Below are positions 20,956 to 36,751 of a DNA stretch of 64,000 nt, one piece after another. The notes under the pieces are model-generated. The model was not told the origin of the DNA and ran no database searches. It saw only the letters and a list, made by a program, of their open reading frames with translations. Numbering within the stretch: position 1 is the stretch's first letter; each line of letters opens with the position of its first letter. The translations under genes were made by a program, and so were the position numbers. Source of the stretch: Candidatus Acetothermia bacterium (lineage in GTDB: Bacteria; Bipolaricaulota; Bipolaricaulia; Bipolaricaulales; Bipolaricaulaceae); NCBI GenBank assembly GCA_003562845.1, contig PWTL01000087.1:1216-65215 (forward strand). Direction: 5' to 3'.

Positions 20956-21011
20956 ACGACTATCTCCAGAACGCCTTGCCAAGCCTACCGTTACGTGTGT
21001 AGTCTAGTAGT

Positions 21012-21528: not shown

Positions 21529-21586
21529 CCGGGCGCAGTCCTCTGACTGACGGCGGTCATGGGGAGGTGCTGCTGGGCCGGGTAGA

Positions 21587-22150
21587 TTGTCCGGTACCAT
21601 GCGACACGAGATCCGCTTTGCGGGATTCGGCGGCCAAGGGATTGTTTCTGCGGGTAGGATCACCGGTAACGCTGCTGTCATCCACGACGGCAAGCACGCG
21701 GTGTTGACCCAAAACTACGGACCGGAGGCCCGAGGCGGCGCTTGCGCTGCCGAGGTTGTAGTCTCCGAGGAGCCGGTCGACTATCCCCACATAACTCAGC
21801 CTGAGGCGCTGGTGATTATGTCTCAGGAGGCGTACGAGAAGTTCTCCTCACGGCTGCGAGAGGGCGGGATTCTCCTTCTGGACGAGGACCTCGTTGAGCA
21901 CCGGGAGCAACCCAATGTCAAGTTGGTCAAGGTTCCGGCCACTCGTATTGCCGAGTCCTTGGGCCGGAAGATTGTGGCCAACGTGGTCATGTTGGGCGCG
22001 CTGGCGGCGGTGTGGCCGGGAGTGTCCCGGGACGCTTTGCTCAACGCGGTATTGGGCTCGGTCCCCCCGCACACCAAGGACCTGAACAAGCGTGCATTCG
22101 ATGCTGGATACGAGCACGTTTCCCAGGAGGCCGTGCATGGCGCAGCCTAG
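21587..22150 (+). CDS. korC: 2-oxoacid:ferredoxin oxidoreductase gamma subunit
   Basis: IRFAGFGGQGIVSAGRI...LTQNYGPEARGG, the pattern typical of OFOR gamma subunits. 187 aa; ATG at 21599 is also possible. Its end overlaps the hdrA start by 14 nt. Confidence 0.8.
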   Translation: MSGTMRHEIRFAGFGGQGIVSAGRITGNAAVIHDGKHAVLTQNYGPEARGGACAAEVVVSEEPVDYPHITQPEALVIMSQEAYEKFSSRLREGGILLLDEDLVEHREQPNVKLVKVPATRIAESLGRKIVANVVMLGALAAVWPGVSRDALLNAVLGSVPPHTKDLNKRAFDAGYEHVSQEAVHGAA

Positions 22151-24110
22151 AATCGGCGTCTTTGTCTGCCACTGCGGGCGCAACATCGCCGGGACAGTGG
22201 ACGTGGAGGGGGTGACCGAGGAAGCATCCCGTATCCCGGGAGTGGTGCTCTCCACACATTATGATTACATGTGCTCCGACCCTGGGCAGGAGATGGTGGC
22301 TCGGGCTATCCGCGAGCACCGCCTGAACGGGGTTGTCGTGGCGGCCTGTTCACCGGGGATGCACGAGGAGACGTTCCGTCACGCGGCCCAAGCGGCAGGG
22401 CTCAACCCGTATCTGGTGGAGATGGCCAACATCCGGGAGCAGTGCTCCTGGGTGCACCGGGGGGCGGCGGCCACGGAAAAGGCGAGCCGCATCCTGGCCA
22501 CGGTGGTGGAGAAGGTTAGAGGGAATCTCCCCTTGGAGCCGTCCACGATGGGGCACTCCACGAAGTGCTTGGTCATCGGAGGGGGGGTAGCAGGAATTCA
22601 GGCCGCGCTGGACGTGGCCAACGCGGGGTACGAAGTGCTGCTTGTGGAGCGCTCCCCTTCCATAGGGGGGCGCATGGCCCAGCTTTCGGAGACGTTCCCC
22701 ACACTGGACTGCTCTCAGTGCATTCTCACCCCGAAGATGGTCGAGGTGGACCGGCACCCGAACATCAGGGTTCTTGCCAACTCGAAAATTGAAGAAGTGT
22801 CAGGGTTCGTTGGCAACTGGGACGTAAGAATCCGCAAGGGGGCCACCTATGTGGATCCGGACAAGTGCAACCTGTGTGGGGACTGCGTGGAGGCTTGTCC
22901 CGTACGGGTTCCTCATGAGTTCGAGGAAGGGTTGACGGAGAGAGCGGGCATCTACATCCCCTTCCCTCAGGCCATCCCGTCTTCTTATACGTTGGATGTG
23001 CAGTCGTGTTTAGGGTTGAAGCCCCTGCGGTGCAGTGAATGCGCTAAAGCGTGCGAGGCCGGTGCGATCAACTACGACATGCAGGACGAGCTTCTCGAGG
23101 AAGAGGTGGGAGCCATAGTTGTGGCCACCGGTTACGAGACACTGCCCAAGGCAGCTATGGCCGAGTACGGCTACGGTGAGATAGCAGACGTGATCTCCGG
23201 CCTGGAGTACGAACGGATGGCCAGCGCTTCCGGGCCCACGCAGGGAGAGATCCGCTGCCCTTCGGACGGTCGGGTCCCCAAGGAAGTTGTGTTCATCCAG
23301 TGCTCCGGCTCGCGGGACCCGGAGCTGTATAAGCCTTACTGCTCGAAGATCTGCTGCATGTACACGGCCAAACATGCGCTTCTCTACCGCCACTCAGTTC
23401 CTGACGGCCAGGCATACGTCTTCTACATCGACATCCGCGCTGGGGGGAAGGGCTACGAGGAGTTCGTGCAGAGGGTGATGGAGGAGGAGCGGATCCTCTA
23501 CCTCCGGGGCAAGGTGGCCAAGGTGTTCCAGGACGGAGACAAGGTAATGGTGTGGGGTGCGGACACCCTCACCGGGCGCCGGGTGGAGGTGGCAGCCGAT
23601 CTGGTAGTCTTGGCGCAAGCGGTCGTCCCCTCGCAGGGCGTGGTCGATCTGGCGAGAAAGCTGCGCGTGTCCGTCGACGAGCACGGGTTCCTCAAGGAGG
23701 CGCACCCCAAGCTACGGCCACTGGAGGCGCTGGCGGCAGGAGTGTTCCTGGCCGGAGCGGCCCAGGGCCCCAAGGACATCCCTGAGGCAGTGGGCCAAGG
23801 GTCGGGCGCTGCGGCCAAGGCTCTCATGCTGCTCAGTTCTCCTGAACTCGTTCACTCCCCGGAGATAGCGGAGGTGGCCGAACACCTGTGCTCGGCCTGC
23901 GGGATCTGCGCTCCGCAGTGCCCGTACGAAGCGATAACCGTTGAAGACACCGCTGTAGTGAACGAAATGCTGTGCGAGGGATGCGGGACGTGCGTTGCCG
24001 CCTGTCCCAGCGGAGCGATGAACCTGCGAAACCTGGCCGACAGCCAGGTTCTGGCCATGCTGCACGCGGCCCTGAAGGAGCACGAGGAAGCGGAGGTGCT
24101 CGGTGGCTGA
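22137..24110 (+). CDS. hdrA: Heterodisulfide reductase subunit A-like FAD/FeS flavoprotein
   Basis: ATG at 22137 lies 6 nt after AGGAGG. N-terminal Cys domain (VFVCHCGRNIAG...CSPG), FAD fold CLVIGGGVAGIQAALD, an inserted ferredoxin motif (CNLCGDCVEACP) and a C-terminal ferredoxin motif (CSACGICAPQCP, CEGCGTCVAACP). 657 aa. Confidence 0.88.
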   Translation: MAQPRIGVFVCHCGRNIAGTVDVEGVTEEASRIPGVVLSTHYDYMCSDPGQEMVARAIREHRLNGVVVAACSPGMHEETFRHAAQAAGLNPYLVEMANIREQCSWVHRGAAATEKASRILATVVEKVRGNLPLEPSTMGHSTKCLVIGGGVAGIQAALDVANAGYEVLLVERSPSIGGRMAQLSETFPTLDCSQCILTPKMVEVDRHPNIRVLANSKIEEVSGFVGNWDVRIRKGATYVDPDKCNLCGDCVEACPVRVPHEFEEGLTERAGIYIPFPQAIPSSYTLDVQSCLGLKPLRCSECAKACEAGAINYDMQDELLEEEVGAIVVATGYETLPKAAMAEYGYGEIADVISGLEYERMASASGPTQGEIRCPSDGRVPKEVVFIQCSGSRDPELYKPYCSKICCMYTAKHALLYRHSVPDGQAYVFYIDIRAGGKGYEEFVQRVMEEERILYLRGKVAKVFQDGDKVMVWGADTLTGRRVEVAADLVVLAQAVVPSQGVVDLARKLRVSVDEHGFLKEAHPKLRPLEALAAGVFLAGAAQGPKDIPEAVGQGSGAAAKALMLLSSPELVHSPEIAEVAEHLCSACGICAPQCPYEAITVEDTAVVNEMLCEGCGTCVAACPSGAMNLRNLADSQVLAMLHAALKEHEEAEVLGG

Positions 24111-24591
24111 GCTGAAGCACGAGCCGAAGATAGCAGCTTTTCTGTGCAGATGGTGTGCCTATGCCGGGGCGGACCTGGCGGGGACGAACCGCCTGGCCTA
24201 CCCCCCGAACATGATCCCCATTCGCGTGCCCTGCTCGGGCCGGGTGGAGCCGGCGTGGGTGATTGAAGCGCTTCGGTCGGGCGCTGATGGTGTGCTCATT
24301 GGAGGATGCCATCCGGGAGACTGCCACTACGTGTCCGGAAACTACAAGGCTCGTCGCAGGGTGGAGCTGTTGCGCGATGTGCTCGCTGGGCTCGGGGTGA
24401 ATCCGGCAAGGGTGAAGCTGGTGTGGGTATCGGCCTCCGAAGGGGTTCGCTTTGCCCAGGTGGTGCGTGACTACGTCGAGGAAATCCGTGGGTTGGGACC
24501 TAACCGGGGGGAATTCGGGGTCCCGGAAGAGGTAGACGACCGAGCAGGGCGCATTGCCCAGGCTGTGGAACAGGCGGTGAACCATGGCTAA
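24103..24591 (+). CDS. mvhD: Methyl-viologen-reducing hydrogenase delta subunit (MvhD)
   Basis: KIAAFLCRWCAYAGADLAG...IRVPCSGRV...GCHPGDCHY. GTG start overlaps the hdrA stop by 8 nt. Confidence 0.85.
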   Translation: MAELKHEPKIAAFLCRWCAYAGADLAGTNRLAYPPNMIPIRVPCSGRVEPAWVIEALRSGADGVLIGGCHPGDCHYVSGNYKARRRVELLRDVLAGLGVNPARVKLVWVSASEGVRFAQVVRDYVEEIRGLGPNRGEFGVPEEVDDRAGRIAQAVEQAVNHG

Positions 24592-25537
24592 GCCGAAGAT
24601 CGCCATGTACTGGACCGGAGGCTGCGGTGGGTGTGACGTTTCTCCGCTGGAGGTAGGGGAGGCAATCGTGGACGTCCTGTCTCAGGTGGAGATAGCTTTC
24701 TGGCCCGCGCTCATGGACGCCAAACGCGCTGACGTGGAGGCGCTGCCCGCCGGAGGCATCGACGTGGCGCTGATCAACGGTGCCCTGCGCACTGAAGATA
24801 ACGTGGAGATGGTCCGCCTTCTCCGGGAGAAGTCCAAGCTGGTGGTGGCTTACGGGGCCTGTGCGCACTTGGGGGGGATCATCGGGCTGGGCAATCTGCA
24901 CTCCGCGCAGTCGCTCGTGTCCACAGCGCTGGGTCCAGGCTGGCACGCGGGATCCCCTTCTTTCAGCGCGAACGGGGATGCACCACCACCCCTGACTGCT
25001 GGAGTAGTGCCCCTAGCGGACGTCATTGCTGTGGACTACGTGGTGCCCGGGTGCCCTCCGCCCGCCCAGCTGATCGGCCTCTTCTTCCAGACGCTTCTGG
25101 GAGGGGAGATGCCGAGCCCTGGCCATGTGTTTGCTGAGGAGAAGGCGCTCTGTGATCAGTGCCCGCGGGAGAAGGAAGATCGGCGCTTGGAGAAGTTCGT
25201 GCGCCCGCACGAGATGGAACCCGATCCCGACAGGTGCCTTCTGGACCAAGGGATAGTGTGCATGGGGCCGGTGACCAGGGGCGGGTGCGAGGCCGCTTGT
25301 CCCGCTTTGGGCATGCCCTGCACCGGCTGTGTTGGTCCGACCCGTAAGGCGGGGGACCTGGCTGGGGGCATGATCTCCGCATTGGCTTCTCTGGTCCGGG
25401 CCGGAGATGAAGGAGAGGACGCGTTCGCGCGAGAGGACGAGGTACTCGCCGGGCTAGTCGATCCGGTGGGGACCTTGTACAAGTACGCTCTGGCCACGAC
25501 TTGGAAGCGGCGCGAGACGGGAGGAGAAGACGCATGA
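24584..25537 (+). CDS. mvhG: [NiFe] hydrogenase small subunit (Mvh/group 3-like)
   Basis: N-terminus KIAMYWTGGCGGCDVS, then GACAHLGG and distal Cys clusters (CDQC, GCEAACP, CTGC). No Tat signal, so cytoplasmic. Overlaps mvhD by 8 nt. Confidence 0.85.
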   Translation: MAKPKIAMYWTGGCGGCDVSPLEVGEAIVDVLSQVEIAFWPALMDAKRADVEALPAGGIDVALINGALRTEDNVEMVRLLREKSKLVVAYGACAHLGGIIGLGNLHSAQSLVSTALGPGWHAGSPSFSANGDAPPPLTAGVVPLADVIAVDYVVPGCPPPAQLIGLFFQTLLGGEMPSPGHVFAEEKALCDQCPREKEDRRLEKFVRPHEMEPDPDRCLLDQGIVCMGPVTRGGCEAACPALGMPCTGCVGPTRKAGDLAGGMISALASLVRAGDEGEDAFAREDEVLAGLVDPVGTLYKYALATTWKRRETGGEDA

Positions 25538-26991
25538 GCGCAAAGAGGATTGCCATCGACCCCATCACGCGCCTGGAGGGACACGGAAAGATCCTCCTGT
25601 ACTTGGACGAGCAAGGCGGCCTCCAGGATGCGGTCCTCCAAGTCCCCGAGCTGCGGGGCTTCGAAAGGTTCTGCGTGGGGCGTCGGGGAGAGGAGATGCC
25701 GCAGATCACCGAGCGTATCTGTGGGGTGTGCCCGGAGGCGCATCACCTAGCCTCGGCCAAGGCGCTGGACGACGCATTCGGTGCACAGGTGCCCCAAGCA
25801 GCGCGGGCGCAGCGGGAGCTGTTCTACAACACGTACATTTTCTCCGACCATCTGCTGCATCTGGTGTTCCTCGGGGGACCGGACCTTCTGCTGGACGAGG
25901 ACACGCCGAAAGAACAGCGCAACGTGTTGGGCGTACTGCAGGCCTATCCCGAGCTGGGAAAGCGAGTGGTGAAGGTCCGCGCGGGCGCGCAGAAGCTGCT
26001 GGAGCTGGTGGGAGGACGCCCCATCCATCCGGTATTCGCCCTGCCCGGCGGGGTGTCCCAGCCGTTGAGCGAGGAGAAGGTCGAGGAGATACAGGCGTAC
26101 ACCAAGGCCATGCAGGAGCTGGCCGTGGACATGATCTCTTTCTTCCATGAGGAGGTCCTTCCCGATCCCGGCCTGCAGGCACTCCTTCTCTCCCCTGAGG
26201 CCCGCCTCCCCGTGCACTTCATGGGGCTTGTAGACGAGGAGCTGGCGCCCAACTTCTACGACGGCAAGCTGCGGGTTGTCTCCTGCGATGGGGAGGAGCT
26301 GTTCCTGGGGGACCCCCGCCAGGGATTGTCCCTGTTCGAGGAGCACAGCGAGCCGTGGACCTACGTCAAGTTCCCGTACCTCAAGCAGTTCGGATGGGCC
26401 GGGCTCAGGGCAGGGTCGGAGTCTGGGCTGTATCAGGTTGGCCCCTTGGCCCGCCTCAACGTGGCCGAGAAAATGGCTACCCCGGCCGCTCAGGAGGAGT
26501 TCGAGCGCTTCTTCGACTACTTCGACGAGCGGCCGGTGCACGCCACGTTCGCCTATCACTGGGCACGCTTGGTGGAGATGGTCCAGGCCGCCGAGGCGGC
26601 CCACGCGCTCGCTTTCGACAAGAGCCTCACCGGGCGCGATGTGCGGGGGAAACTATCCGCTCCCGGGGAGGGGATCGGGGTAATCGAAGCCGCCCGGGGC
26701 ACGTTGTTTCACGAGTACAAGCTGGACGAACAGGGCCTGATGAAGCATGTGAACTTGGTAGTGGCCACCACGCACAACGCCGGACCGATCAGCATGTCGG
26801 TGAAGGCGATGGCCGAGGCTGCTGTGCGACAGGGGGACCTGGACGAGCGTTTGCTGAACAGAGTGGAAATGGCTTTCCGCGCTTACGATCCCTGCCTGGC
26901 TTGTGCCACTCATTTCCTGCCCGGGGAGCTCCCGCTTCAAGTGGAGGTGTACGGACCCGATGGGACTGTCCTGCGGCGCGTCCGGCGCTGA
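25534..26991 (+). CDS. mvhA: [NiFe] hydrogenase large subunit (Mvh/group 3-like)
   Basis: ITRLEGHG, N-terminal Ni ligands RICGVCPEAHH, C-terminal ligands DPCLACATH followed by a 25-aa cleavable tail. ATGA overlap with the small-subunit gene. Confidence 0.9.
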   Translation: MSAKRIAIDPITRLEGHGKILLYLDEQGGLQDAVLQVPELRGFERFCVGRRGEEMPQITERICGVCPEAHHLASAKALDDAFGAQVPQAARAQRELFYNTYIFSDHLLHLVFLGGPDLLLDEDTPKEQRNVLGVLQAYPELGKRVVKVRAGAQKLLELVGGRPIHPVFALPGGVSQPLSEEKVEEIQAYTKAMQELAVDMISFFHEEVLPDPGLQALLLSPEARLPVHFMGLVDEELAPNFYDGKLRVVSCDGEELFLGDPRQGLSLFEEHSEPWTYVKFPYLKQFGWAGLRAGSESGLYQVGPLARLNVAEKMATPAAQEEFERFFDYFDERPVHATFAYHWARLVEMVQAAEAAHALAFDKSLTGRDVRGKLSAPGEGIGVIEAARGTLFHEYKLDEQGLMKHVNLVVATTHNAGPISMSVKAMAEAAVRQGDLDERLLNRVEMAFRAYDPCLACATHFLPGELPLQVEVYGPDGTVLRRVRR

Positions 26992-26992
26992 C

Positions 26993-27580
26993 GTGGCGGT
27001 GGTAGGCATGGGCAATCCGTACTGCACGGACGACGGTGTCGGGGTCTCCGTAGTGCGGTCTTTGCCTCCCCGGGAGAACGTCGAGGTGTGGGAGACGGTG
27101 CAAGGGGGGGCGTATCTTGCGCAAACCTTGCTCGGGTATTCCCGCGTCCTCCTTGTGGACGCCGCTCCGTCCCTCCCTCCGGGAGAAGTTCGCCTGCAGC
27201 CCCTGTCCGCGTGGGAGGCCCTCGGTGGGGAGAGGAGAGGTGCCCACGGGCTGAGCCTGACGCAGGCTTTGGAGATGTTGCGGGCCCTGTCCGGCGGGGA
27301 CACCTCGGATGCAGGGTGCGACGTTGCCCTGGGTGATCAGCGTCGCACACAAGGTGCGACGCTACACCAGCCTGAGCGTAGCGTCGGAGCTTGTCTCCGA
27401 CGTGGTGAAGCGTCGCAGACGAGCTGCGACGCTACGGATGTGGGGTTGAAGGTCCCCGAGGTGTGGGCATTGGCCATTGGGGTTCCCCCGGATCCGCCAT
27501 TCGGCGAAGGGCTATCGCCCCGGGTTGCGGCGGCCGTGCCGGCTGCCGTGGAGGAGGTGAGGGGATGGCTGACCAGGTGA
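26993..27580 (+). CDS. Hydrogenase maturation endopeptidase (HycI/FrhD/HoxW family) carrying a ~41-codon insertion
   Basis: GTG at 26993, 1 nt after the mvhA stop. VAVVGMGNPYCTDDGVGV and VLLVDA are protease motifs. The C-terminal part (PEVWALAIGV...GLSPRV) is separated from LEMLRALSGG by a segment encoded by palindromic repeats. Confidence 0.75.
   Translation: MAVVGMGNPYCTDDGVGVSVVRSLPPRENVEVWETVQGGAYLAQTLLGYSRVLLVDAAPSLPPGEVRLQPLSAWEALGGERRGAHGLSLTQALEMLRALSGGDTSDAGCDVALGDQRRTQGATLHQPERSVGACLRRGEASQTSCDATDVGLKVPEVWALAIGVPPDPPFGEGLSPRVAAAVPAAVEEVRGWLTR
27316..27437. repeat. Intragenic cluster of four REP-like palindromic units
   Basis: Four hairpins: GTGCGACG/CGTCGCAC (27316-23 / 27341-48), CGACGCTAC/GTAGCGTCG (27357-65 / 27378-86), CGTCGGAG-cttgt-CTCCGACG (27382-27402) and GCGTCGCAG-acgag-CTGCGACGC (27410-27432), followed by TACGG. 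The same stems recur at 56917-57046. Confidence 0.65.
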
Positions 27581-27966
27581 GATTGTCAAAGGTTGCGCTG
27601 TCGGCGGACTTCGCCCGGCGGGTGGAAGAGCTGTCGGGGCAGTCCCCTTACCGCTGCTATCAATGTGGTAAGTGTGGGGCGGGGTGCCCCTTCGCCGAGT
27701 ACATGGATCTTCTGCCCAGCCAGGTGCTGCGCCTTGTGCAGATTGGAGATGAGAGGGTATTGGACGCCGGCGCTCCGTGGAGCTGCGCCTCGTGTCTCGC
27801 CTGCGAGGTGCGTTGTCCGCGCGGCGTGGACATCGCCAAGGTGATGGAGGCGGTGCGGCTCCTGTCGCTGCGCAAGGGGAGAACGCCGTTCGCAGTGGAC
27901 GAGGCGGCGTCCCGCAGGTTGCCGCAGATTGCCCTTGTGGGGATCACCAGGAAGATGACACCATGA
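27565..27966 (+). CDS. hdrC: Heterodisulfide reductase subunit C-like 4Fe-4S protein
   Basis: ATG at 27565. Two cluster motifs, CYQCGKCGAGCP and CASCLACEVRCP. 133 aa, overlapping the protease end by 16 nt. Confidence 0.8.
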   Translation: MADQVRLSKVALSADFARRVEELSGQSPYRCYQCGKCGAGCPFAEYMDLLPSQVLRLVQIGDERVLDAGAPWSCASCLACEVRCPRGVDIAKVMEAVRLLSLRKGRTPFAVDEAASRRLPQIALVGITRKMTP

Positions 27967-28841
27967 ACACCATTTTGTACTACCCGGGGTGCGGAGTAGC
28001 CGATCAGGCCCGCAGTATGGAGAAAGGTGCACGCGAGGCCCTTACGGCCTTGGATTGGGAGATGCAGGAGATGTCACGTTGGAATTGTTGCGGGACTGTC
28101 TACTCATTGGCTACAGACGACCTGATGCGTCACGTGGGCCCGGCACGAGTGCTTGCCCGAGCCCAAGACGCGGGCCAGGAGAGGCTGCTCACTCTTTGTT
28201 CTATGTGCTACAGCACCCTGAAGCGCTCCGAGCAGTTTCTAACAGCTGACCGGGAGCGCTTGGACAGGGTGAACGCTTTTCTCGACGACGAACCTGACTA
28301 CCGGGGAGGATTGCGCGTCGTGCACCTGCTGGAGCTTCTGCGGGATGAGATTGGCTACGAGGCCGTGCAAGAGCGGGTGGTGCGCCCTCTACAGGGGCTG
28401 AAGGTGGCTCCGTATTATGGCTGTACGTTGACCAGGCCCCGCGCAGCAGGAGTGGACGACCCCGAGCGGCCGACGGTGTTGGAGGATCTGCTGACGGCGC
28501 TGGGGGCGGAAGCGGTGGCCACCGCGGAGCGCGTGGAGTGCTGTGGAGCATACCTGACGGCTAGCTCCCCCGATGTTGCCCGCCGTCGAGCTGTGGACAT
28601 CGCGCGGGCGGCAATCGCCGGTGGTGCGGAGTTGATGATAACTAGCTGCCCCCTGTGCCAGTACAACTTGGACACGCGCCTGGCGGAGGCGCGAGGCTCC
28701 AGCGATCTGCGTGTTCCCAGTGTGTACTTCACGCAGCTTCTTGCGCTTGCGCTGGGGGGCGATCCCGCTGTAGAGGAACACGAGATAGATCCCTTGCCGG
28801 TGCTGGCGGCTCGGGGCCTGTCGGTGGAGGTGAAAGCATGA
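27963..28841 (+). CDS. hdrB: Heterodisulfide reductase subunit B-like protein (two CCG domains)
   Basis: ATGA overlap with hdrC. Two CCG-domain signatures: YYPGCG...WNCCGT...CSMCY and YYGCT...VECCGA...CPLCQ. 292 aa. Confidence 0.85.
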   Translation: MNTILYYPGCGVADQARSMEKGAREALTALDWEMQEMSRWNCCGTVYSLATDDLMRHVGPARVLARAQDAGQERLLTLCSMCYSTLKRSEQFLTADRERLDRVNAFLDDEPDYRGGLRVVHLLELLRDEIGYEAVQERVVRPLQGLKVAPYYGCTLTRPRAAGVDDPERPTVLEDLLTALGAEAVATAERVECCGAYLTASSPDVARRRAVDIARAAIAGGAELMITSCPLCQYNLDTRLAEARGSSDLRVPSVYFTQLLALALGGDPAVEEHEIDPLPVLAARGLSVEVKA

Positions 28842-29521
28842 GCGCCGAGCTAGAGATGATCCGTGTATACATAATGGGACGGGCCTATGAGGTTCCCGCC
28901 GGCCTGACGATCATGAAGGCCATGGAGTACGCGGGGTACCGGCTTGTGCGGGGGGTGGGCTGTCGGGGAGGCTTCTGTGGCGCCTGCGCGACAGTGTTCC
29001 GCCGGCCTGGCGATTACAAGCTGTACGCAGACCTTGCCTGCCAGACCACGGCCGAGGACGAGATGTACATCGCCCAGATTCCGTCGGTGCCTGCCGAGAG
29101 GGCACCGTGGAAGCTATCAGAGTTGGAGCCGGAGGAGAATTTCATTCTAGCTCTGTACCCCGAGGTGGCGCGTTGTGTGGCCTGCAACACCTGCAGCCGG
29201 GCCTGCCCCCAGGAACTCGAGGTGATGGACTACATCCAAGCCGCGCTGCGAGGCGATATCGCGCAGGTGGCTGAGCTTTCCTTTGACTGTGTGCAGTGTG
29301 GGTTGTGTGCGATGCGCTGCCCGGCGGAGATCGTGCACTACCACGTGGGACAGTTGGCGCGGAGAGTGTACGGGGCCTATCGGGCGCCTCAGGCTGGGCA
29401 CCTGGCGGCCAGGGTGGAAGAGATCGAAAGCGGCACCTTCGACCAGGAGCTGGACACGCTCCAGCAGATGTCGAGAGACGAGCTGGTGGAGGCTTACCGC
29501 AAGCGCGACGTGGAGAAATAG
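28838..29521 (+). CDS. Succinate dehydrogenase/fumarate reductase iron-sulfur subunit-like protein
   Basis: ATGA overlap with hdrB. N-terminal 2Fe-2S-type motif GCRGGFCGACATV...LAC, then CVACNTCSRACP and CVQCGLCAMRCP. 227 aa. Confidence 0.7.
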   Translation: MSAELEMIRVYIMGRAYEVPAGLTIMKAMEYAGYRLVRGVGCRGGFCGACATVFRRPGDYKLYADLACQTTAEDEMYIAQIPSVPAERAPWKLSELEPEENFILALYPEVARCVACNTCSRACPQELEVMDYIQAALRGDIAQVAELSFDCVQCGLCAMRCPAEIVHYHVGQLARRVYGAYRAPQAGHLAARVEEIESGTFDQELDTLQQMSRDELVEAYRKRDVEK

Positions 29522-29530
29522 GAGGCGAAG

Positions 29531-31189
29531 GTGGCAGACGCATATCCCAGCAGCATGCGGGAGTCCATCGGGCGGGTGGAGGCCACCCGGCCGCAGCGGA
29601 TGGGAGTGGAGCCCCAGCGCCTCTCTTTGGAGGAGCGGAGGGAAGTCCTGGATCAGTTCCACCCCGACTACAAGGAAGAGGGCAAGAGGGCGTTGGCGGT
29701 AGGTCCTTCCAAAGGGGAGTTGGTGCCCCACGAGATGGCGGACCTCCTGGAAGCGTATCCTCTGATCGACCCGGATAGGGTGGACCTGGGGCAGGCCGAC
29801 TACGAGGTCGACGTGCTCGTAATCGGCGGCGGCGGCGGGGGGACTGTTGCTGCGCTGTGGGCAAATGAAGCGGGGATCCCCGCGGGGCGGATCTTGATTG
29901 CTACCAAGTTGAGGCATGGCGATTCCAACTCCATGATGGCCCAGGGGGGGATCCAGGCGGCAGACAAGGAGAACGATAGTCCTCCCATTCACTACCTGGA
30001 CGTGCAGGGAGGGGGGCACTTCGGAAACGATCCGGAACTCGTGCGGGCGCTGGTCAGCGACGCTCCGGAGGTCCTCCGCTGGCATGAGAAGCTGGGAGTG
30101 ATGTACGATAAGGACCCCGAGGGCCGTATGCTGACCATTCACGGCGGGGGCACGTCCCGCAAGCGGATGCACTCGGCCAAGGACTACACGGGGATGGAGA
30201 TCATGCGCGTCCTGCGGGACGAGGCTCTGGGGCGGGGGATACCCACCGTCGAGTTCTCCCCGGTTGTAGAGCTGATCAGTGACGACAAAGGACAAGTCGT
30301 CGGGGCCGTGCTGTGGAACATGGAGACGGAGGAGTACAGCGTGGTGCGGGCCAAGGCGACTGTTCTGGCCACCGGCGGTTGGGGGAGACTGCACATTCAG
30401 GGGTTCCCCACCTCCAACCACTACGGAGCCACCGCAGACGGCCTGGTGTTGGCCTATCGAGCGGGCGCGGGGTTGCGGGACCTGGACTCGGTGCAGTACC
30501 ACCCCACTGGCGCGGCGTTCCCCGAGCAGATCGTGGGGCTGCTCATCACGGAGAAAGTGCGGGGCATGGGCGCGCAGCCGGTGAATGTGGAAGGGGAGCT
30601 CTTCGTGCACCCGCTTGAGCCGCGTGATGTGGAGTCGGGGGCGTTCATCCGCGAGTGCTCCTCGCCCGAGCAAGGGGGCCGGGGACGCGGTGTCGTCACG
30701 CCCACGGGGATGATCGGGATCTGGCTGGACACGCCGATGGTCGATCTGATCCACGGACAGGGAACGTTCAACCGGGAGCTGTCCGCGATCTGGCGAATGT
30801 ACGCTCGGTTCGACATCGACCCGTCTGCGGACCCGGTGCTAACCTATCCCACGCTGCACTACCAGAACGGCGGGGTAGTCATAGACGCAGATGGGGCAAC
30901 GCAGGTGCCGGGTCTGTTCGCCGGCGGGGAAGTCTCTGGAGGGATTCACGGGAAGAACCGGCTGATGGGGAACTCCCTTCTAGACTTCAACGTGTTCGGC
31001 CGGCGCGCCGGGATAGCCGCAGCCAAGTGGGCCCAGCGATCCAAGCCGGGGAAGCCCACCCTCGAACACGCCTTGCGGTATACCCAGGATCTGCAGGCGG
31101 CGGGAGTGGAAGAGGTGCGCAAGGCTCCCTCGCTGCTCCCCGAATATAGGGGGAAGAAGACCCTTGCCCGGGTGGTGGACTTGATATGA
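29531..31189 (+). CDS. Fumarate reductase/succinate dehydrogenase-family flavoprotein (soluble, non-covalent-FAD type)
   Basis: GTG lies 6 nt after AGGAGG. FAD fold VDVLVIGGGGGGTVAAL, then VQYHPTG, LITEKVRGMGA, HYQNGGV and GKNRLMGNSLLDFNVFGRRAG. DSNSMMAQGG occupies the site of the SdhA/FrdA RSHTVxAQGG motif, so the FAD-linking His is Asn. About 90 aa of N-terminal extension precede the FAD fold. Confidence 0.75.
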   Translation: MADAYPSSMRESIGRVEATRPQRMGVEPQRLSLEERREVLDQFHPDYKEEGKRALAVGPSKGELVPHEMADLLEAYPLIDPDRVDLGQADYEVDVLVIGGGGGGTVAALWANEAGIPAGRILIATKLRHGDSNSMMAQGGIQAADKENDSPPIHYLDVQGGGHFGNDPELVRALVSDAPEVLRWHEKLGVMYDKDPEGRMLTIHGGGTSRKRMHSAKDYTGMEIMRVLRDEALGRGIPTVEFSPVVELISDDKGQVVGAVLWNMETEEYSVVRAKATVLATGGWGRLHIQGFPTSNHYGATADGLVLAYRAGAGLRDLDSVQYHPTGAAFPEQIVGLLITEKVRGMGAQPVNVEGELFVHPLEPRDVESGAFIRECSSPEQGGRGRGVVTPTGMIGIWLDTPMVDLIHGQGTFNRELSAIWRMYARFDIDPSADPVLTYPTLHYQNGGVVIDADGATQVPGLFAGGEVSGGIHGKNRLMGNSLLDFNVFGRRAGIAAAKWAQRSKPGKPTLEHALRYTQDLQAAGVEEVRKAPSLLPEYRGKKTLARVVDLI

Positions 31190-31482
31190 CCGCGCACAGG
31201 ACACGCGAGATCAAGCGGTGGAAGGTGCCCAAAGGGCGGGTTTGTGTGCAGGATGATCTGTGCAAGGGCTGTGGCTTCTGCATCGATTTCTGCCCCAAAG
31301 ACGTGCTTTCCGCCGCCAGCCACTACAACGTCAAGGGGTACCACCCCCCGGAGCTCGTGGACCCCGAGGAGTGCATCATGTGCCGCTTCTGCGAGCTGAT
31401 CTGTCCGGACTTCGCTATCTGGACCGAGCAGCCCGACCAAGAAGGACAGGAACAAGAGGAGGAGGATCAGGATGCCGGGTAA
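31186..31482 (+). CDS. korD: 2-oxoacid:ferredoxin oxidoreductase delta (ferredoxin-like) subunit
   Basis: CKGCGFCIDFCP and CIMCRFCELICP; acidic C-terminal tail. ATGA overlap with the flavoprotein gene. Confidence 0.75.
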   Translation: MTAHRTREIKRWKVPKGRVCVQDDLCKGCGFCIDFCPKDVLSAASHYNVKGYHPPELVDPEECIMCRFCELICPDFAIWTEQPDQEGQEQEEEDQDAG

Positions 31483-32614
31483 GGCAGTGCTGTCCGGCGT
31501 GCATTTCATGAACGGGGACGAGGCCATCGCCGAAGGGGCTCTGGCTGCCGGCTGCCGTTTCTTCGCCGCCTACCCGATCACCCCGCAGTCGGAGATCGCC
31601 GAGCGACTGGCCGCGCGCCTGCCGCGTATCGGCGGTGTGTTCATACAGATGGAGGATGAGCTGGCGGCTATGGCCGCCGTGGTCGGGGCGGCGTGGGGGG
31701 GAGACAAGGCGATGACGGCCACCTCCGGCCCCGGCTTCTCCCTGATGATGGAGAATCTGGGACTGGCTGTTATGACTGAGACACCGTGCGTAGTGGCCAA
31801 CGTACAGCGGGCGGGCCCGTCTACCGGACTCCCCACGGCCGTGGGCCAGGGGGACATGATGCAGGCTCGCTGGGGGTCTCATGGGCACTATGAACTCATC
31901 GCCCTCTGCCCGTACTCCCCGCAGGAGGCGTTCGACCTCACGGTGCGCGCCTTCGCCCTGGCCGAGAGGTTTCGCAGCCCCGTGCTCATCATGACCGACG
32001 AAGTGGTGGGGCACATGTACGAGAAGGTGGAGATACCCGCTGAGGTGGTGGAAGCTCGTCGGCGTACTCCGCAGGTTCCCCCGGAGGGATTCCTTCCGTA
32101 CAAACCCGATGAGGATTTGGTGCCCCCTATGGCCTGCGCCGGCGAAGGGTACCGCATTCACGTCACCGGGCTGACCCACGACGAACGCGGCTACCCGGAC
32201 ATGTCCGCCGACGCACAAGACAGGCTCGTGCGTCGGCTGTGTGAGAAGATAAAGCGCTACCCTGATGAGTACACACTTTGGGAAGAGCACTCCCTGGAAG
32301 ACGCGGACGTGGCAGTGATCTCCTACGGCATCTCCGCGCGGGTGGCGTTGGGAGCCGTGGAGCTGGCCCGCAAGAAGGGGATCAAGGCCGGACTGCTCAG
32401 GCTCATCACCACGTGGCCGTTCCCGAATGAGGTCGTGCGCTCGCTCGCTGAGCGAGTGCAGGGGATGGTGACCGTGGAGATAAACCTCGGCCAGATGTCG
32501 CGTGAGGTGGAACGCGCTGTGCAGGGCAAAGTCCCCCTGGGAGGAGTGTATCATGCCGGGGGGCGCATACACCGGCCCGAAGAAGTGTTGGCTGGGATAG
32601 AGGAAGTGATTTGA
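31472..32614 (+). CDS. korA: 2-oxoglutarate/2-oxoacid:ferredoxin oxidoreductase alpha subunit
   Basis: NGDEAIAEGALAAGCRFFAAYPITPQSEI, FIQMEDELAA (Kor-type rather than the Por ESEHSA motif), TATSGPGFSLM and RAGPSTGLPT. Confidence 0.85.
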   Translation: MPGKAVLSGVHFMNGDEAIAEGALAAGCRFFAAYPITPQSEIAERLAARLPRIGGVFIQMEDELAAMAAVVGAAWGGDKAMTATSGPGFSLMMENLGLAVMTETPCVVANVQRAGPSTGLPTAVGQGDMMQARWGSHGHYELIALCPYSPQEAFDLTVRAFALAERFRSPVLIMTDEVVGHMYEKVEIPAEVVEARRRTPQVPPEGFLPYKPDEDLVPPMACAGEGYRIHVTGLTHDERGYPDMSADAQDRLVRRLCEKIKRYPDEYTLWEEHSLEDADVAVISYGISARVALGAVELARKKGIKAGLLRLITTWPFPNEVVRSLAERVQGMVTVEINLGQMSREVERAVQGKVPLGGVYHAGGRIHRPEEVLAGIEEVI

Positions 32615-33486
32615 TGCCGGTAAAGGAGAAGAAGCAGGCTCCACCTCCTGAAATCGCTCAGGGTCGGCACCCCATGGAGAAGTACCTGCGGACCGACCGC
32701 ATCCCCCACATCTGGTGTGCGGGATGTGGCCTGGGGACGACCGTGTCCAGTTTTCTCTACGCGATGGACAATCTGGGGTTGGATCCCGATTCCGTTGCAG
32801 TTATCTCTGGGATCGGCTGCACGGGCCGAGTGGCGGGCTACGTCCGCATGGATTCGTACCATACGACACACGGCCGGCCGATCCCGTTCGCCACGGGGCT
32901 GAAGCTGGCCAAACCCGATATGAAGGCAGTGGTGTTCTCCGGCGACGGGGACCTGTTTGCCATCGGTGGGAACCACTTCATCCACGCTGCGCGGCGCAAC
33001 CTGGACATCAACGTAATTTGCGTGAACAACCTGAACTACGGGATGACGGGAGGACAGGCGGGGCCGACCACTCCGCTTGGTGGTCGCTGCACCACCTCCC
33101 CGTACGGAAACTTCGAGCACCCGTTCAACCTCGTATACCTCGCCGCCTCGGCCGGCGCCCCGTACGTAGCCCGCTGGACGAGCCTGGATGTACGGAGACT
33201 ACAGCGAGCCATCGAGGAGATGCTGGTCCGTAAAGGGTTCGCCTTCCTGGAGATCATCGCCCCCTGCCCCACGAACTACGGGCGGCGCAACAAGCTCGGC
33301 GAGGGCCTCGACGAACTGCGCTACTACGCGGAGCACGCCGTGATCGAACACGGCGCCGATCCTGCGGACACGGAAATCCTCCCCGGGAAAGACTTCCTCG
33401 TGGGCAAGTTCGTCGACGAGGAGGAACCGACCTACTGGGAGATGTACCAGGACAAGGTGGCGGAATTGGAAGGGGGCAGACGGTGA
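32611..33486 (+). CDS. korB: 2-oxoglutarate/2-oxoacid:ferredoxin oxidoreductase beta (TPP-binding) subunit
   Basis: WCAGCGLG, GIGCTGR and the TPP motif GDGDLFAIGGNHFIHAARRNLDINVICVNNLNYGMTGGQ. ATGA overlap with korA. Confidence 0.85.
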   Translation: MMPVKEKKQAPPPEIAQGRHPMEKYLRTDRIPHIWCAGCGLGTTVSSFLYAMDNLGLDPDSVAVISGIGCTGRVAGYVRMDSYHTTHGRPIPFATGLKLAKPDMKAVVFSGDGDLFAIGGNHFIHAARRNLDINVICVNNLNYGMTGGQAGPTTPLGGRCTTSPYGNFEHPFNLVYLAASAGAPYVARWTSLDVRRLQRAIEEMLVRKGFAFLEIIAPCPTNYGRRNKLGEGLDELRYYAEHAVIEHGADPADTEILPGKDFLVGKFVDEEEPTYWEMYQDKVAELEGGRR

Positions 33487-34343
33487 GCGGCACGCTGACC
33501 AACGCGGTGAGTGAGGCCTTGGGCAGGGCGGCCACAGCACTGCCGACGGACGTGGTGCGGGCATTGGAGGCTGCCCGCGATAGGGAAAGCGGGCCGGCCC
33601 GCGTACAGCTCGAGGCCATTTTGCGGAACGTGAACGTGGCCCGGGAGGGCGCGGTGCCCATCTGTCAGGACACAGGGACCGTGACTTACTTTGTGAAGTT
33701 TGGAGTGCGCTTTCCCCGGCTCGCGGAGCTCCGGGAGGTGTTGGAGGCCGCCACTCGCAGCGCAACGGAGACAGTCCCCCTACGGCCGAACACGGTACAT
33801 CCGTTCACTGGGGCCAACCCGGGGGACAACACAGGGGAGTACATCCCTGCGGTGACGTGGGAGCCAGTGGACGGGGACGAGGCCGAAGTGCACATCCTGC
33901 CCAAAGGAGGCGGTTCGGAGAACTGCTCAGCACTGAAGATGCTCACCCCGTCTGCGGGGATGAAGGGCGTCCTGGAGGCAGTGGCGGACCACGTCGTGTC
34001 CCGGGAGGGAAAGCCCTGCCCCCCCACCGTGATCGGCGTAGGGATCGGGGGGGGAGCGGACATGGCGCTGAAGCTGGGCAAGCGGGCCCTGCTGCGGCCC
34101 GTGGGAACCCGACACCCGGAACCGGAGGTGGCCCGGCTCGAGGAACAGCTGGAGAGGCTGATCAACGCCTCTGGAGTGGGCCCCATGGGCCTCGGTGGGG
34201 AAACGACAGTGCTGGCCGTGCACGTGGAGTACGCGCACCGCCATCCGGCATCTCTCCCCGTGGGGATAGTTGTCCAGTGCTGGGCCGATAGACGAGCGGC
34301 CTTGCGTATCGGGCCTGACGGCAGCGTAACGACGATTGGATGA
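33483..34343 (+). CDS. Class I (Fe-S) fumarate hydratase alpha subunit (fumarase/tartrate dehydratase family)
   Basis: VPICQDTGT, ILPKGGGSEN and CPPTVIGVGIGGG. 286 aa, with a 4-nt overlap with korB. Confidence 0.85.
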   Translation: MSGTLTNAVSEALGRAATALPTDVVRALEAARDRESGPARVQLEAILRNVNVAREGAVPICQDTGTVTYFVKFGVRFPRLAELREVLEAATRSATETVPLRPNTVHPFTGANPGDNTGEYIPAVTWEPVDGDEAEVHILPKGGGSENCSALKMLTPSAGMKGVLEAVADHVVSREGKPCPPTVIGVGIGGGADMALKLGKRALLRPVGTRHPEPEVARLEEQLERLINASGVGPMGLGGETTVLAVHVEYAHRHPASLPVGIVVQCWADRRAALRIGPDGSVTTIG

Positions 34344-34395
34344 GTTCCTTGGGTTCCTTAGGGTTTGTGGGGACTGGGGGACTGGGAGGTGAACG

Positions 34396-34983
34396 ATGGA
34401 CAAAGTGCTGACCACCCCCATCGCTGAGCGCGACGTGCGGGAACTGCGTGTTGGTGATGTATTCTACGTCTCCGGAAGAATGTTCACCGCGCGGGACGCG
34501 GCGCACGAGATGATGCTCGAACGCGGGGCGCCGCTTCCGGTAGAGGGAATTCCGGTCTTCCACTGTGGGCCGGTGGTGCGCAAAACCGGCGCGGGGTGGG
34601 ATCTCCTCGCCGGCGGGCCTACTACCTCGGTGCGCATGGAGGGGCTGGAGGGGGACTTCCTGCGCAAGTTTCATCCCCGGGTCATCGTGGGGAAGGGGGG
34701 CATGGGAGAGAAGACGTTGGCCGCCCTATCAGAGGTGGGCGCTGTGTACACCCACTTCACCGGCGGGGCGGGAGCGTTGGCCGCCCAAGCAGTGAGCAAG
34801 GTGGAGGAAGTGTACTGGCTGGAGGAACTGGGTATTCCCGAGGCGATTTGGGTTCTTCAGGTAGAGAAGTTCGGACCGCTGGTGGTCACGATGGACTCCC
34901 ACGGACGTAGCCTGCACAGCGAGCTTGCCGCCAAGGTTGCCGAGAACATGAAGCGGGCCAAGGCGCAGTTCTTGAGCGAGTGA
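34396..34983 (+). CDS. Class I fumarate hydratase beta subunit
   Basis: VSGRMFTARDAAH, GPTTSVRME, GKGGMG and THFTGGAGA. 195 aa. Confidence 0.85.
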   Translation: MDKVLTTPIAERDVRELRVGDVFYVSGRMFTARDAAHEMMLERGAPLPVEGIPVFHCGPVVRKTGAGWDLLAGGPTTSVRMEGLEGDFLRKFHPRVIVGKGGMGEKTLAALSEVGAVYTHFTGGAGALAAQAVSKVEEVYWLEELGIPEAIWVLQVEKFGPLVVTMDSHGRSLHSELAAKVAENMKRAKAQFLSE

Positions 34984-34999
34984 ACGAAAGAGGAGGAGC

Positions 35000-36358
35000 A
35001 TGGAACCGCGTAAGCCTAGCGTAGAGGAGCTGTTGAACAAGGCCAAGGAACCGGCACGTAAAGCCCCCGCATGGCACGCTCATTACCGGGGAAAAGTGTC
35101 CGTGGCCCTGAAGTGCGCTATCACCGACTACCAGGATTTCGGGATCTGGTACACGCCTGGAGTGGCCCAGCCATGCCGGGAAATAGCCGAGGACCCGGAG
35201 AAAGTGTTCCAGTACACCAACAAGGGGAACTTTGTCGCCGTCGTCTCCGACGGGACGCGCGTGTTGGGATTGGGGGATATTGGCCCACAGGCCGCCCTTC
35301 CGGTGATGGAGGGGAAGGCCCTGTTGTTCAAGTACTTGGGCGGAGTGGATGCGTTCCCGGTGACCGTGGACACCAAGGACCCCGACGAACTCATCCGCAC
35401 CGTCAAGCTCATCGGACCGGCGTTCGGGGGTGTGAACCTGGAGGACATCGCCAGCCCCAAGTGTTTCCGCGTGCTGGACGAGCTGCGCCGGGAGATGGAT
35501 ATCCCCGTGTGGCACGATGACCAGCAAGGCACAGCCTCCATCACCTTGGCCGGAGTGCTGAACGCGCTGAAAGTGGTGGGAAAGGATCCCACGCGGGCCA
35601 CCTACGCTGTGATCGGTTCTGGTGCTGCGAACATCGCCTTCGTGCGGGTCCTCCTTACGTACGGAGTTCCCGCCGGCAACGTGATCATGGTCGACTCTAA
35701 GGGAATCCTGGAGCCGGGCCGGGAGGACCTGGAGCGGGGCAAGGAGGACAATCCCTACAAGTGGGATTACGCGCAGCGTACCAACGCCGAGCGTCGCAGG
35801 GGGGGCATGGCCGAGGCCTTGCAGGGCGTGGATGTTTGTGTGGCAGCCTCCAAGTCGGGTCCCGATGTGATCAATCCCGAGTGGATTCGAGGCATGGCCA
35901 AGGACGCGGTGGTGTTCGCCTGTGCCAACCCCGTTCCCGAAATTTGGCCCTGGGAGGCGGAGGAGGCGGGGGCGAGGGTCATCGGCACTGGACGCTCCGA
36001 CTTCGCCAATCAGATCAACAACTCCCTTGGTTTCCCGGGAATCTTCCGCGGGACGCTCGACGTGTTCGCCCGCACTATTACCGATGAGATGGCCATCGCC
36101 GCCGCTGAAGCCATCGCCCGCACCGCCGAAGAGAAGGGCCTGTCGGAAACGTACATCGTCCCCACGATGATGGAGTGGGAGGTGTACATCAACGTAGCAG
36201 TGGATGTGGCCCTGAAGGCCATCGAGCAGGGAGTAGCCCGCCGGGAACTCTCCAAGAGCCAACTCGAGGAGCGGGCGGCACAGGTGATCAAGCACGCGCG
36301 GCAGGAGACGGAGATTCTGATGAAGCAAGGACATATCTCTCAGCCGCCGAACGTGTGA
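35000..36358 (+). CDS. NAD(P)-dependent malic enzyme (short form)
   Basis: YTPGVAQPC, VSDGTRVLGLGDIGPQAALPVMEGKALLFK, NLEDIASPKCF and the dinucleotide fold VIGSGAANIA. 452 aa. Confidence 0.88.
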   Translation: MEPRKPSVEELLNKAKEPARKAPAWHAHYRGKVSVALKCAITDYQDFGIWYTPGVAQPCREIAEDPEKVFQYTNKGNFVAVVSDGTRVLGLGDIGPQAALPVMEGKALLFKYLGGVDAFPVTVDTKDPDELIRTVKLIGPAFGGVNLEDIASPKCFRVLDELRREMDIPVWHDDQQGTASITLAGVLNALKVVGKDPTRATYAVIGSGAANIAFVRVLLTYGVPAGNVIMVDSKGILEPGREDLERGKEDNPYKWDYAQRTNAERRRGGMAEALQGVDVCVAASKSGPDVINPEWIRGMAKDAVVFACANPVPEIWPWEAEEAGARVIGTGRSDFANQINNSLGFPGIFRGTLDVFARTITDEMAIAAAEAIARTAEEKGLSETYIVPTMMEWEVYINVAVDVALKAIEQGVARRELSKSQLEERAAQVIKHARQETEILMKQGHISQPPNV

Positions 36359-36434
36359 GGCTTGTCGGCACCGGGTGCAAGAGCCGTCCCCGGCGGTGTC
36401 TCAGGGCTCCTTGTACCCGGACGTGCCTGCGCTG

Positions 36435-36638: not shown

Positions 36639-36751
36639 GTGTCGAGTGTAGGTCTCCTCCTGTGGGCGGCTCGTGCACGGGCGATGGAGCCGCAGTGGAG
36701 TTGGTGGGTGCCGGTCGGGACAGGTAGACTGGCGACGAGGAGCTGAGTGCC

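Follow-up and report, generated by a model that had tools for sequence, protein, structure and literature searches.

Proposed Hdr-linked fumarate reductases in other organisms

Heterodisulfide reductase complexes coupled to a hydrogenase or to an NADH-dehydrogenase module (HdrABC-Mvh and HdrABC-Flx) are widespread in non-methanogenic anaerobes, where the high-potential acceptor is usually left as an undefined disulfide. We analyzed a stretch of 64,000 nucleotides (here, the window) of a Candidatus Acetothermia bacterium of the Bipolaricaulota (contig PWTL01000087.1, positions 1,216 to 65,215), in which genes for HdrC, HdrB, an FrdB-like iron-sulfur (FeS) protein and an FrdA-like flavoprotein (the last two together referred to as FrdBA) follow one another inside an operon that also codes for HdrA and the Mvh hydrogenase. 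The locus is predicted to encode a soluble, Hdr-fed fumarate reductase, most likely one that is not thiol dependent, and, with its relatives in at least 589 species genomes, it offers a concrete and testable acceptor, fumarate.

The locus is not the first of its kind but joins an arrangement that has already been proposed. In 'Ca. Celaenobacter' (Cloacimonadota), genes for a thiol:fumarate reductase (Tfr), a 2-oxoglutarate:ferredoxin oxidoreductase (OGOR), fumarate hydratase, a group 3c [NiFe] hydrogenase (Mvh) and Hdr form a cluster that was read as functionally linked and H2 driven, with an assumed heterodisulfide chemistry of the coenzyme M-coenzyme B (CoM-S-S-CoB) type (Williams et al. 2021, PMC8542988). 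That cluster also includes a succinyl-CoA synthetase and is part of a full reductive tricarboxylic acid (rTCA) cycle with ATP-citrate lyase (ACL), whereas the window holds the reductive branch only; the Celaenobacter metagenome-assembled genomes (MAGs) were compared by description only, and a Cloacimonadota locus of our own survey (L091) carries FrdBA of the window family. Endoriftia and Thioflavicoccus have flxABCD-hdrABC interspersed with korABCD and 'tfrAB' (Rubin-Blum 2019, PMC6315080), with co-expression data (Mitchell 2024, PMC11636981), and Pseudoclostridium thermosuccinogenes has a 'succinate operon' that, as far as PMC7282089 relates it from a preprint (Koendjbiharie and van Kranenburg 2019), combines Flx-Hdr with a 'novel fumarate reductase'. 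To the extent given in these sources, the clusters share with the window a two-gene soluble fumarate reductase amid hdrABC and kor or fumarase genes, and their membership of the family is judged from this architecture only; their donor is FlxABCD (NADH), whereas that of the window is the Mvh hydrogenase (H2). A homologue search from a Lachnospiraceae member of the family returned only relatives of at least 84% identity and did not reach P. thermosuccinogenes. Bifurcation to fumarate and ferredoxin or OGOR has already been proposed for Flx clusters (PMC6315080, PMC11636981, PMC7282089) and for the Mvh cluster (PMC8542988). A 2026 survey restates this proposal (PMC13147460), and no biochemical proof of such clusters was found in the literature searched. 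In the metabolic reconstruction of 'Ca. Bipolaricaulis', no Sdh or Frd was annotated, and Hdr-Mvh was treated as a recycler of H2 and ferredoxin (PMC6092417).

TfrAB of Methanothermobacter is also soluble and without an anchor, has FeS and CCG cofactors equivalent to those of the FrdB-like protein plus HdrB, and serves the reductive branch to 2-oxoglutarate; however, TfrB is one polypeptide, while the corresponding parts in the window are three proteins with an extra dicluster HdrC, and in comparison with TfrA the window flavoprotein has an N-terminal extension and no C-terminal domain. The methanogen MvhAGD-HdrABC complexes (5odc, 8rvu, 7bkb, 9sfi) are matched by HdrA at 700 bits, by the full set of cluster ligands in HdrB and HdrC and by the presence of MvhD, MvhG and MvhA, but CoM-S-S-CoB is not expected in this bacterium and the window adds FrdBA directly after hdrB. 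With E. coli FrdAB(CD) and the type E Sdh/MFR enzymes, which have a CCG-domain SdhE, the locus shares the fold with its flavin adenine dinucleotide (FAD) and capping domains, the catalytic residues and an FeS subunit collinear with FrdB; it differs from E. coli FrdABCD and from type E Sdh/MFR in having no membrane subunits, no covalent FAD and no C-terminal domain, in the presence of HdrC and in a 4-Cys motif in place of the 3Fe-4S site. FrdABCDE of Hydrogenobacter thermophilus, in the work of Miura and colleagues from 2008, reportedly has five subunits, two of them Hdr-like, encoded by scattered genes and depends on NADH via a GltD-like subunit, and we know of no bifurcation reported for it. 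It is the only purified soluble multi-subunit fumarate reductase of a reductive TCA pathway (PMC13147460).

The four-gene unit and its flavoprotein

The unit consists of four genes:

27565..27966, plus strand: hdrC-like gene, 133 amino acids, two CxxCxxCxxxCP motifs (2x[4Fe-4S])
27963..28841, plus strand: hdrB-like gene, 292 amino acids, two CCG domains, 10 Cys
28838..29521, plus strand: FrdB-like iron-sulfur subunit, 227 amino acids, 2Fe-2S ferredoxin domain and two full 4-Cys motifs
29531..31189, plus strand: FrdA-like flavoprotein, 552 amino acids, GTG start, FAD and capping domains

The hdrC gene starts with ATG, with GGAGGAGGTGAGGGG just ahead of it; hdrB overlaps hdrC by 4 nt, the FeS protein gene overlaps hdrB by 4 nt, and the 9-nt gap that separates it from the flavoprotein gene contains GGAGG. 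An earlier reading of this DNA made from its letters (the original prediction) had proposed a soluble fumarate reductase with non-covalent FAD, tied genetically to HdrBC, and this core of it stands at the level of sequence. Its gene coordinates, 4-nt overlaps and 9-nt gap were correct, the HdrC, HdrB and FeS protein motifs that it listed are present, and so are the YHPTG, ITEKVRGMGA, HYQNGG and NRLMGNSLLD stretches of the flavoprotein, which fall on FrdA catalytic residues. The FAD-linking His that it had read by eye as replaced by Asn, the N-terminal extension of about 90 residues and the lack of a membrane anchor all agree with what is described below.

We aligned the flavoprotein with FrdA, SdhA and NadB of E. 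coli (from NC_000913.3). Besides the stretches just mentioned it has PRD, and its H324, T340, E341, R365, H443 and R477 are equivalent to His232, Thr244, Glu245, Arg287, His355 and Arg390 of FrdA, catalytic residues that are invariant among 77 family members. DSNSMMAQGG aligns with RSHTVAAEGG of FrdA, so that the FAD-linking His44 is Asn133 in the window protein; Asn133 is likewise invariant in the 77 family sequences, and the histidine for an 8-alpha-N3-histidyl FAD link is absent. The flavoprotein is predicted from this to bind FAD non-covalently. Non-covalent FAD disfavors succinate oxidation, as known from His44 variants of E. coli FrdA, and its presence here would fit the fumarate-reducing direction.

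The domain architecture is unusual at both ends of the chain. Pfam FAD_binding_2 (PF00890) matches residues 94-483 at 221.6 bits with the entire profile covered, which leaves about 90 residues ahead of the GGGGGG dinucleotide fold. At the other end, the C-terminal domain of SdhA, FrdA and NadB (PF02910) had no match in the flavoprotein, whose chain ends about 70 residues past the FAD domain, a point missing from the original prediction. The AlphaFold2 (AF2) model (pLDDT 91, pTM 0.91) finds its best structural match in E. coli FrdA (1kf6_A, TM 0.67 over about 460 columns), which offers nothing equivalent to the N-terminal extension. Within the extension, an HPD at residues 44-46 is invariant.

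The flavoprotein stays below the cut-off of every curated NCBIfam model: TfrA gives 283 bits (cut-off 718), sdhA_frdA 263 (567) and NadB (TIGR00551) 243 (453). The best match among them, the TfrA model NF004900, covers model positions 6-417 of 546 only. Among 1.8 billion representative sequences there is one homologue at 63% identity, followed by others at 51%, 48%, 44% and then at most 40%, which delimits a tight family. A maximum-likelihood tree of 104 sequences combined FrdA, SdhA and NadB of E. coli with five NadB proteins of related genomes and with representatives typed by NCBIfam. In it the family is a 27-row clade (SH-aLRT 96) whose typed members all share the N-terminal extension and the short C-terminus. 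It stands apart from the clade with the true TfrA (P0201, 765 bits) and the mycobacterial Sdh1 type (P0199), and also from E. coli SdhA and FrdA and from every NadB sequence in the tree.

Two identities were rejected on these grounds. Membership of TfrA is contradicted by the score (283 against 718 bits), the missing C-terminal domain and the separate clade, and identity as NadB by the score (243 bits against a cut-off of 452.75), by a Gly in the column of the NadB-specific Glu121, by the position of NadB elsewhere in the tree and by a separate NadB in genomes of the same genus. The flavoprotein thus belongs to a well-defined, distinct clade characterized by an N-terminal extension, no C-terminal domain and, by prediction, non-covalent FAD. 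Current curated models do not name this clade, so genome annotations miss this predicted fumarate reductase.

The iron-sulfur protein, HdrC and HdrB

The FeS protein has the motif C42-x4-C47-x2-C50...C68, followed by CVACNTCSRACP and CVQCGLCAMRCP, and all of these cysteines are kept in 76 of 76 relatives from other species. Where FrdB has its 3Fe-4S site, there is a full 4-Cys motif. Sequence comparison with the PDB matches generic ferredoxin domains only, and TIGR00384 gives 24.6 bits (cut-off 88), but the family profile is collinear with E. coli FrdB (hhalign probability 94%, E 1e-7). The AF2 model (pLDDT 91.7) has as its top Foldseek match a complex II Fe-S subunit, weakly (TM 0.31), with all matches weak and domain-wise only; its C-terminal half resembles HdrC. 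The profile alignment, the Foldseek match and the replaced 3Fe-4S site point to a protein of the FrdB/SdhB type, weakly as far as the fold is concerned. In one representative of 727 amino acids (P0122), the FeS protein and the flavoprotein are naturally fused (38% and 50% identity to the window proteins), and this fusion is direct evidence for a joint function of the two as one unit.

HdrC has two CxxCxxCxxxCP motifs, CYQCGKCGAGCP and CASCLACEVRCP, and all 8 Cys are kept in 53 of 53 relatives from other species; its best NCBIfam match, TIGR03290, stays under the cut-off (62 against 160 bits). Two stretches of HdrB match the CCG domain (Pfam PF02754), and its exactly 10 cysteines fall into the sets C10, C42C43, C79xxC82 and C154, C193C194, C229xxC232, that is, with the canonical spacings C10-x31-CC-x35-CxxC and C154-x38-CC-x34-CxxC. 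They are kept in 58 to 59 of 59 relatives from other species. HdrB scores 124 bits against HdrB of solved Hdr complexes (9sfi_C/5odc_B) and 138 bits against the curated HdrB equivalog, whose cut-off of 345 is not reached; the best NCBIfam match, also below its cut-off, is the MFR SdhE anchor subunit. By analogy with the solved complexes, HdrB would carry two non-cubane [4Fe-4S] sites.

The operon

The four genes are part of a run of 16 plus-strand genes in which every overlap or gap is at most 52 nt, in the order korG-hdrA-mvhD-mvhG-mvhA-HycI-type protease-hdrC-hdrB-frdB-like-frdA-like-korD-korA-korB-fumA-fumB-malic enzyme. A consensus scan of 20900-37000 for promoters and terminators gave none above chance, and the spacing of the genes suggests a single operon. 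The G+C content is 63% across the window, and the nearest homologues of its proteins carry Bipolaricaulota or Acetothermia labels. Apart from the four genes above, the operon comprises:

21587..22150, plus strand: korG, 2-oxoacid:ferredoxin oxidoreductase (Kor) gamma subunit, first gene of the operon (Pfam POR)
22137..24110, plus strand: hdrA, full-length homologue of the bifurcating HdrA flavoprotein (700 bits; Pfam)
24103..26991, plus strand: mvhD, mvhG and mvhA, F420-non-reducing [NiFe] hydrogenase delta, small and large subunits (Pfam FlpD, Oxidored_q6, NiFeSe_Hases)
26903..27580, plus strand: HycI-type hydrogenase maturation protease (weak Pfam HycI match)
31186..33486, plus strand: korD, korA and korB, delta, alpha and beta subunits of a 2-oxoacid (probably 2-oxoglutarate):ferredoxin oxidoreductase
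33483..34983, plus strand: fumA and fumB, class I fumarate hydratase alpha and beta subunits (above curated cut-offs)
35000..36358, plus strand: malic enzyme (profile matches)

All six subunits of an MvhAGD-HdrABC complex are therefore encoded in one operon with overlapping genes and a full-length HdrA, which matches 8rvu_a/5odc_A over its whole length (700 bits, E 1e-209). None of the 16 operon products is a candidate membrane anchor, as the maximal Kyte-Doolittle 19-residue mean is at most 1.82 and no Sdh/Frd anchor family is matched.

Gene neighborhoods in other genomes

Relatives of the flavoprotein were found in at least 589 genomes in a scan of one genome per species, in both Bacteria and Archaea, and the hdrC, hdrB, FeS protein and flavoprotein genes form a conserved unit. 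The matches listed include, among the Archaea, Thermoplasmata, Thermococci, Theionarchaea, Bathyarchaeia, Heimdall-, Thor- and Borrarchaeota, Culexarchaeum and Desulfurococcales, and, among the Bacteria, Bipolaricaulota, Chloroflexota, WOR-3, Spirochaetota, Thermotogae, Aminicenantes, Cloacimonadota, Bacillota and others. We mapped 15 operon proteins of the window onto the 80 best flavoprotein loci, 77 of which have the FeS gene at the same locus. Same-strand genes were counted in the 39 well-flanked loci, which belong to different species and have 8 kb or more of upstream and 4 kb or more of downstream sequence: HdrA is present in 33, HdrB in 31, HdrC in 30, MvhD in 27, Kor in 19, MvhAG in 8 and fumarase in 5.

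Several loci come close to the window in their full gene content. Kor, HdrA, MvhDGA, HdrCB and FrdBA occur together in Thermoplasmata (L001 and L027), in an Asgard archaeon (L003) and in Anaerolineae (L052), and a locus of Thermotogae at an incomplete contig (L029) has MvhA, HdrCB, FrdBA, KorDAB, malic enzyme and fumarase. In Sporomusa rhizae DSM 16652 (L096, NZ_CP156925.1:1569608-1591188) the order is hdrB-hdrC-hdrA-flxD-flxC-flxB-flxA-frdB-frdA; here the Flx NADH-dehydrogenase module replaces the hydrogenase, which argues for a constant acceptor arm and an interchangeable donor module. A Lachnospiraceae locus (L099) has the same Flx-type architecture with FrdBA of the window family. Members of the flavoprotein family abound in Lachnospiraceae of the gut, for example in Laedolimicola intestinihominis, and cultured carriers exist; with this species and S. 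rhizae DSM 16652, experiments are feasible.

Gene content of the source genome and its relatives

The source assembly has 1.45 Mb in 127 contigs and is 85% complete. One protein of each of three kinds was found in it: HdrB with its CCG domains, MvhD of the FlpD family and the flavoprotein as a full PF00890 match. Of 31 related genomes, four (G009, G012, G021 and G030) lack the flavoprotein, and precisely these four, and no others, have no protein with a CCG domain, while most of the others have a single HdrB about 1.4 kb from the flavoprotein, including one closed genome of 99% completeness (G007). This shows that, in the 31 genomes, HdrBC of the Bipolaricaulia exists only alongside FrdBA.

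Neither ComA nor DsrC was found in the 85%-complete source genome, nor was any other gene of the coenzyme M (CoM) pathway, which suggests, but no more than suggests, that there is no known disulfide substrate for Hdr. DsrC and CoM were rejected as Hdr substrates on this basis. SucC is present on another contig of the assembly, while citrate synthase and ACL had no family match in it; a full rTCA cycle was rejected for lack of these two, and the gene set corresponds instead to a reductive branch that ends at 2-oxoglutarate, like that of TfrAB-using methanogens. NadA is present just upstream of the window (G000:C33:100-1080), and neither NadB nor NadX was found in the source assembly. Genomes of the same genus have a separate NadB at 466-485 bits, which makes its absence here probably an assembly gap; over the same genus and family the range is 466-511 bits, above the cut-off, and the flavoprotein relatives in NadB-carrying genomes score about 250 bits against the NadB model.

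Proposed function and alternatives

Since HdrBC is the only such pair found and the full HdrA-MvhDGA set stands in the operon, a fumarate-reducing arm of a bifurcating hydrogenase/Hdr is a better reading of the locus than the free-standing thiol:fumarate reductase of the original prediction, which is not supported in that form. We give somewhat better than even chances to a soluble MvhAGD-HdrABC-FrdBA complex that bifurcates electrons at a flavin, with FrdBA and HdrBC as its high-potential acceptor arm. In such a complex the [NiFe] site of MvhA would oxidize H2, and MvhG and MvhD would pass the electrons on to the FAD of HdrA, where the pair would be split. One electron would go uphill to ferredoxin, or straight to KorD; the other would go downhill, passing both [4Fe-4S] clusters of HdrC, both non-cubane clusters of HdrB and then, in the FrdB-like protein, two [4Fe-4S] clusters and one [2Fe-2S] cluster, before it reaches the non-covalent FAD, where fumarate would be reduced to succinate. 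The net reaction would be 2 H2 + fumarate + Fd(ox) -> succinate + Fd(red).

Background potentials are -414 mV for H+/H2, about -450 to -500 mV for ferredoxin and about -140 mV for CoM-S-S-CoB, in comparison with which fumarate is the stronger pull. The fumarate/succinate potential is +33 mV (PMC5861303). From these established potentials the coupled reaction of H2, fumarate and ferredoxin is strongly exergonic. The remaining genes suggest a metabolic rationale, in which malic enzyme and fumarase would supply fumarate and the one reduced ferredoxin made per succinate would be used by KorDABG, after a succinyl-CoA synthetase encoded elsewhere, so that each succinate would come paired with the reduced ferredoxin that carboxylation of succinyl-CoA requires. 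The operon as a whole would then be a reductive branch from pyruvate or malate to 2-oxoglutarate.

A more specific version is that FrdBA docks on HdrBC, that the HdrB clusters are a plain relay with no disulfide involved, and that fumarate is the physiological acceptor of Mvh/Flx-HdrABC in many non-methanogens (Bipolaricaulota, Thermoplasmata, Bathyarchaeia, Asgard archaea, Chloroflexota and gut Lachnospiraceae). We put this forward tentatively, at somewhat less than even chances. If true, it would answer what a 'heterodisulfide reductase' does in organisms without CoM and coenzyme B (CoB), and it would mean a fixed 1:1 supply of reduced ferredoxin to 2-oxoglutarate synthase.

Several points weigh against the bifurcating complex. 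To our knowledge, HdrB is the terminal, substrate-binding subunit in the solved Hdr complexes, and no structure shows onward electron transfer from it to an FeS protein; the ten retained CCG cysteines suit disulfide chemistry and electron relay equally. MvhAG is found in only 8 of the 39 well-flanked loci, and in about 4 of the 39 FrdBA has no Hdr gene nearby, so it presumably can take electrons from another partner. As the genome is 85% complete, statements on an only copy are provisional, and as the 31 genomes are mutually related, the co-occurrence in them is no statistical test. For Kor, 2-oxoglutarate is the probable substrate, with the specificity not settled by the profiles: KorA is above the NF006412 cut-off, and the 2-oxoglutarate-specific models rank next, below theirs.

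Closest to the original prediction is a four-subunit thiol:fumarate reductase like TfrAB, made of HdrCB and FrdBA, in which HdrB would turn a dithiol or two thiols into a disulfide, the electrons would reach fumarate via the FeS protein, and the disulfide would be re-reduced by Hdr/Mvh with bifurcation. TfrAB of Methanothermobacter works like this, according to Heim et al. 1998 as cited in PMC6315080. Read as a split TfrAB, the unit agrees in its architecture, with the TfrB model covered piecewise by the FeS protein (19-85), HdrC (135-222) and HdrB (263-477), but not in its phylogeny, in which the flavoprotein lies outside the TfrA clade. The CCG cysteines are all conserved, and a Methanofastidiosia locus has the four-gene unit alone, with no HdrA or Mvh nearby, in a lineage that uses CoM/CoB. 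However, as only one HdrBC pair was found in the source genome and in the majority of relatives, formation and consumption of the disulfide would both fall to one and the same HdrB; the lack of ComA and DsrC among the genes found leaves the shuttle with no carrier gene, and HdrBC sits between mvh and frd in one operon with hdrA. A thiol shuttle is the less likely version at this locus, and we consider it unlikely in absolute terms. Rather unlikely, too, and slightly more so, is that FrdBA is a stand-alone soluble fumarate reductase dependent on ferredoxin or another donor, with Hdr/Mvh merely co-transcribed and serving an acceptor of their own. Some loci (L046, L053 and L056) carry FrdBA alone, the last of them flanked by oppositely oriented genes, and the ferredoxin-like dicluster domain of the FeS protein could take electrons from soluble ferredoxin. 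Yet same-strand Hdr genes occur in about 80% of the well-flanked loci from many phyla, which argues for Hdr as the usual partner of FrdBA, the presence and absence of the two match exactly within the Bipolaricaulia relatives, and if ferredoxin drove fumarate reduction, about 0.5 V would be lost and Kor would face competition for its ferredoxin.

The remaining possibility, that the flavoprotein stands in for NadB and acts on L-aspartate, that it acts on another enoate, or that the complex works backwards by confurcation, oxidizing succinate and evolving H2, seems to us very unlikely. The presence of NadA with neither NadB nor NadX in the source assembly would agree with an aspartate-oxidizing role, and the catalytic residues are common to NadB and Frd; but bona fide NadB proteins (466-511 bits) stand beside the flavoprotein in genomes of the same genus and family, the NadB Glu121 is Gly in the flavoprotein, and the latter has its own FeS subunit and a fumarase close by. 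As for the reverse mode, succinate oxidation coupled to H2 at high temperature was speculated on for a related-looking cluster of Culexarchaeia (PMC9723716). The predicted non-covalent FAD would disfavor that direction, and the mean potential of succinate and ferredoxin, about -210 mV, is too positive for proton reduction.

Other features of the locus and its relatives

The open reading frame (ORF) of the HycI-like protease (26903-27580) is long for its family; a protease gene is found at the equivalent position in the Asgard locus L003. In that locus, from an Asgard MAG (GCA_052584985.1), the hdrA gene between korG and mvhD is uncalled (L003:2563-4591), and its ORF ends at an in-frame TGA. 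With the TGA read as selenocysteine the frame runs to just before mvhD, and the window has Leu at this position; selenocysteine, recoding or an assembly error could each be the cause.

In a non-methanogenic Thermoplasmata genome, a gene of the ComA (phosphosulfolactate synthase) family lies about 9 kb downstream of the cluster (L001:20426-21439). Last, korG of the window is parted from korDAB by the 9-kb hdrA-mvh-hdrCB-frdBA block, whereas the Thermoplasmata and Asgard loci have a contiguous korDABG upstream of hdrA, so that the window order looks like a rearrangement of that cluster.

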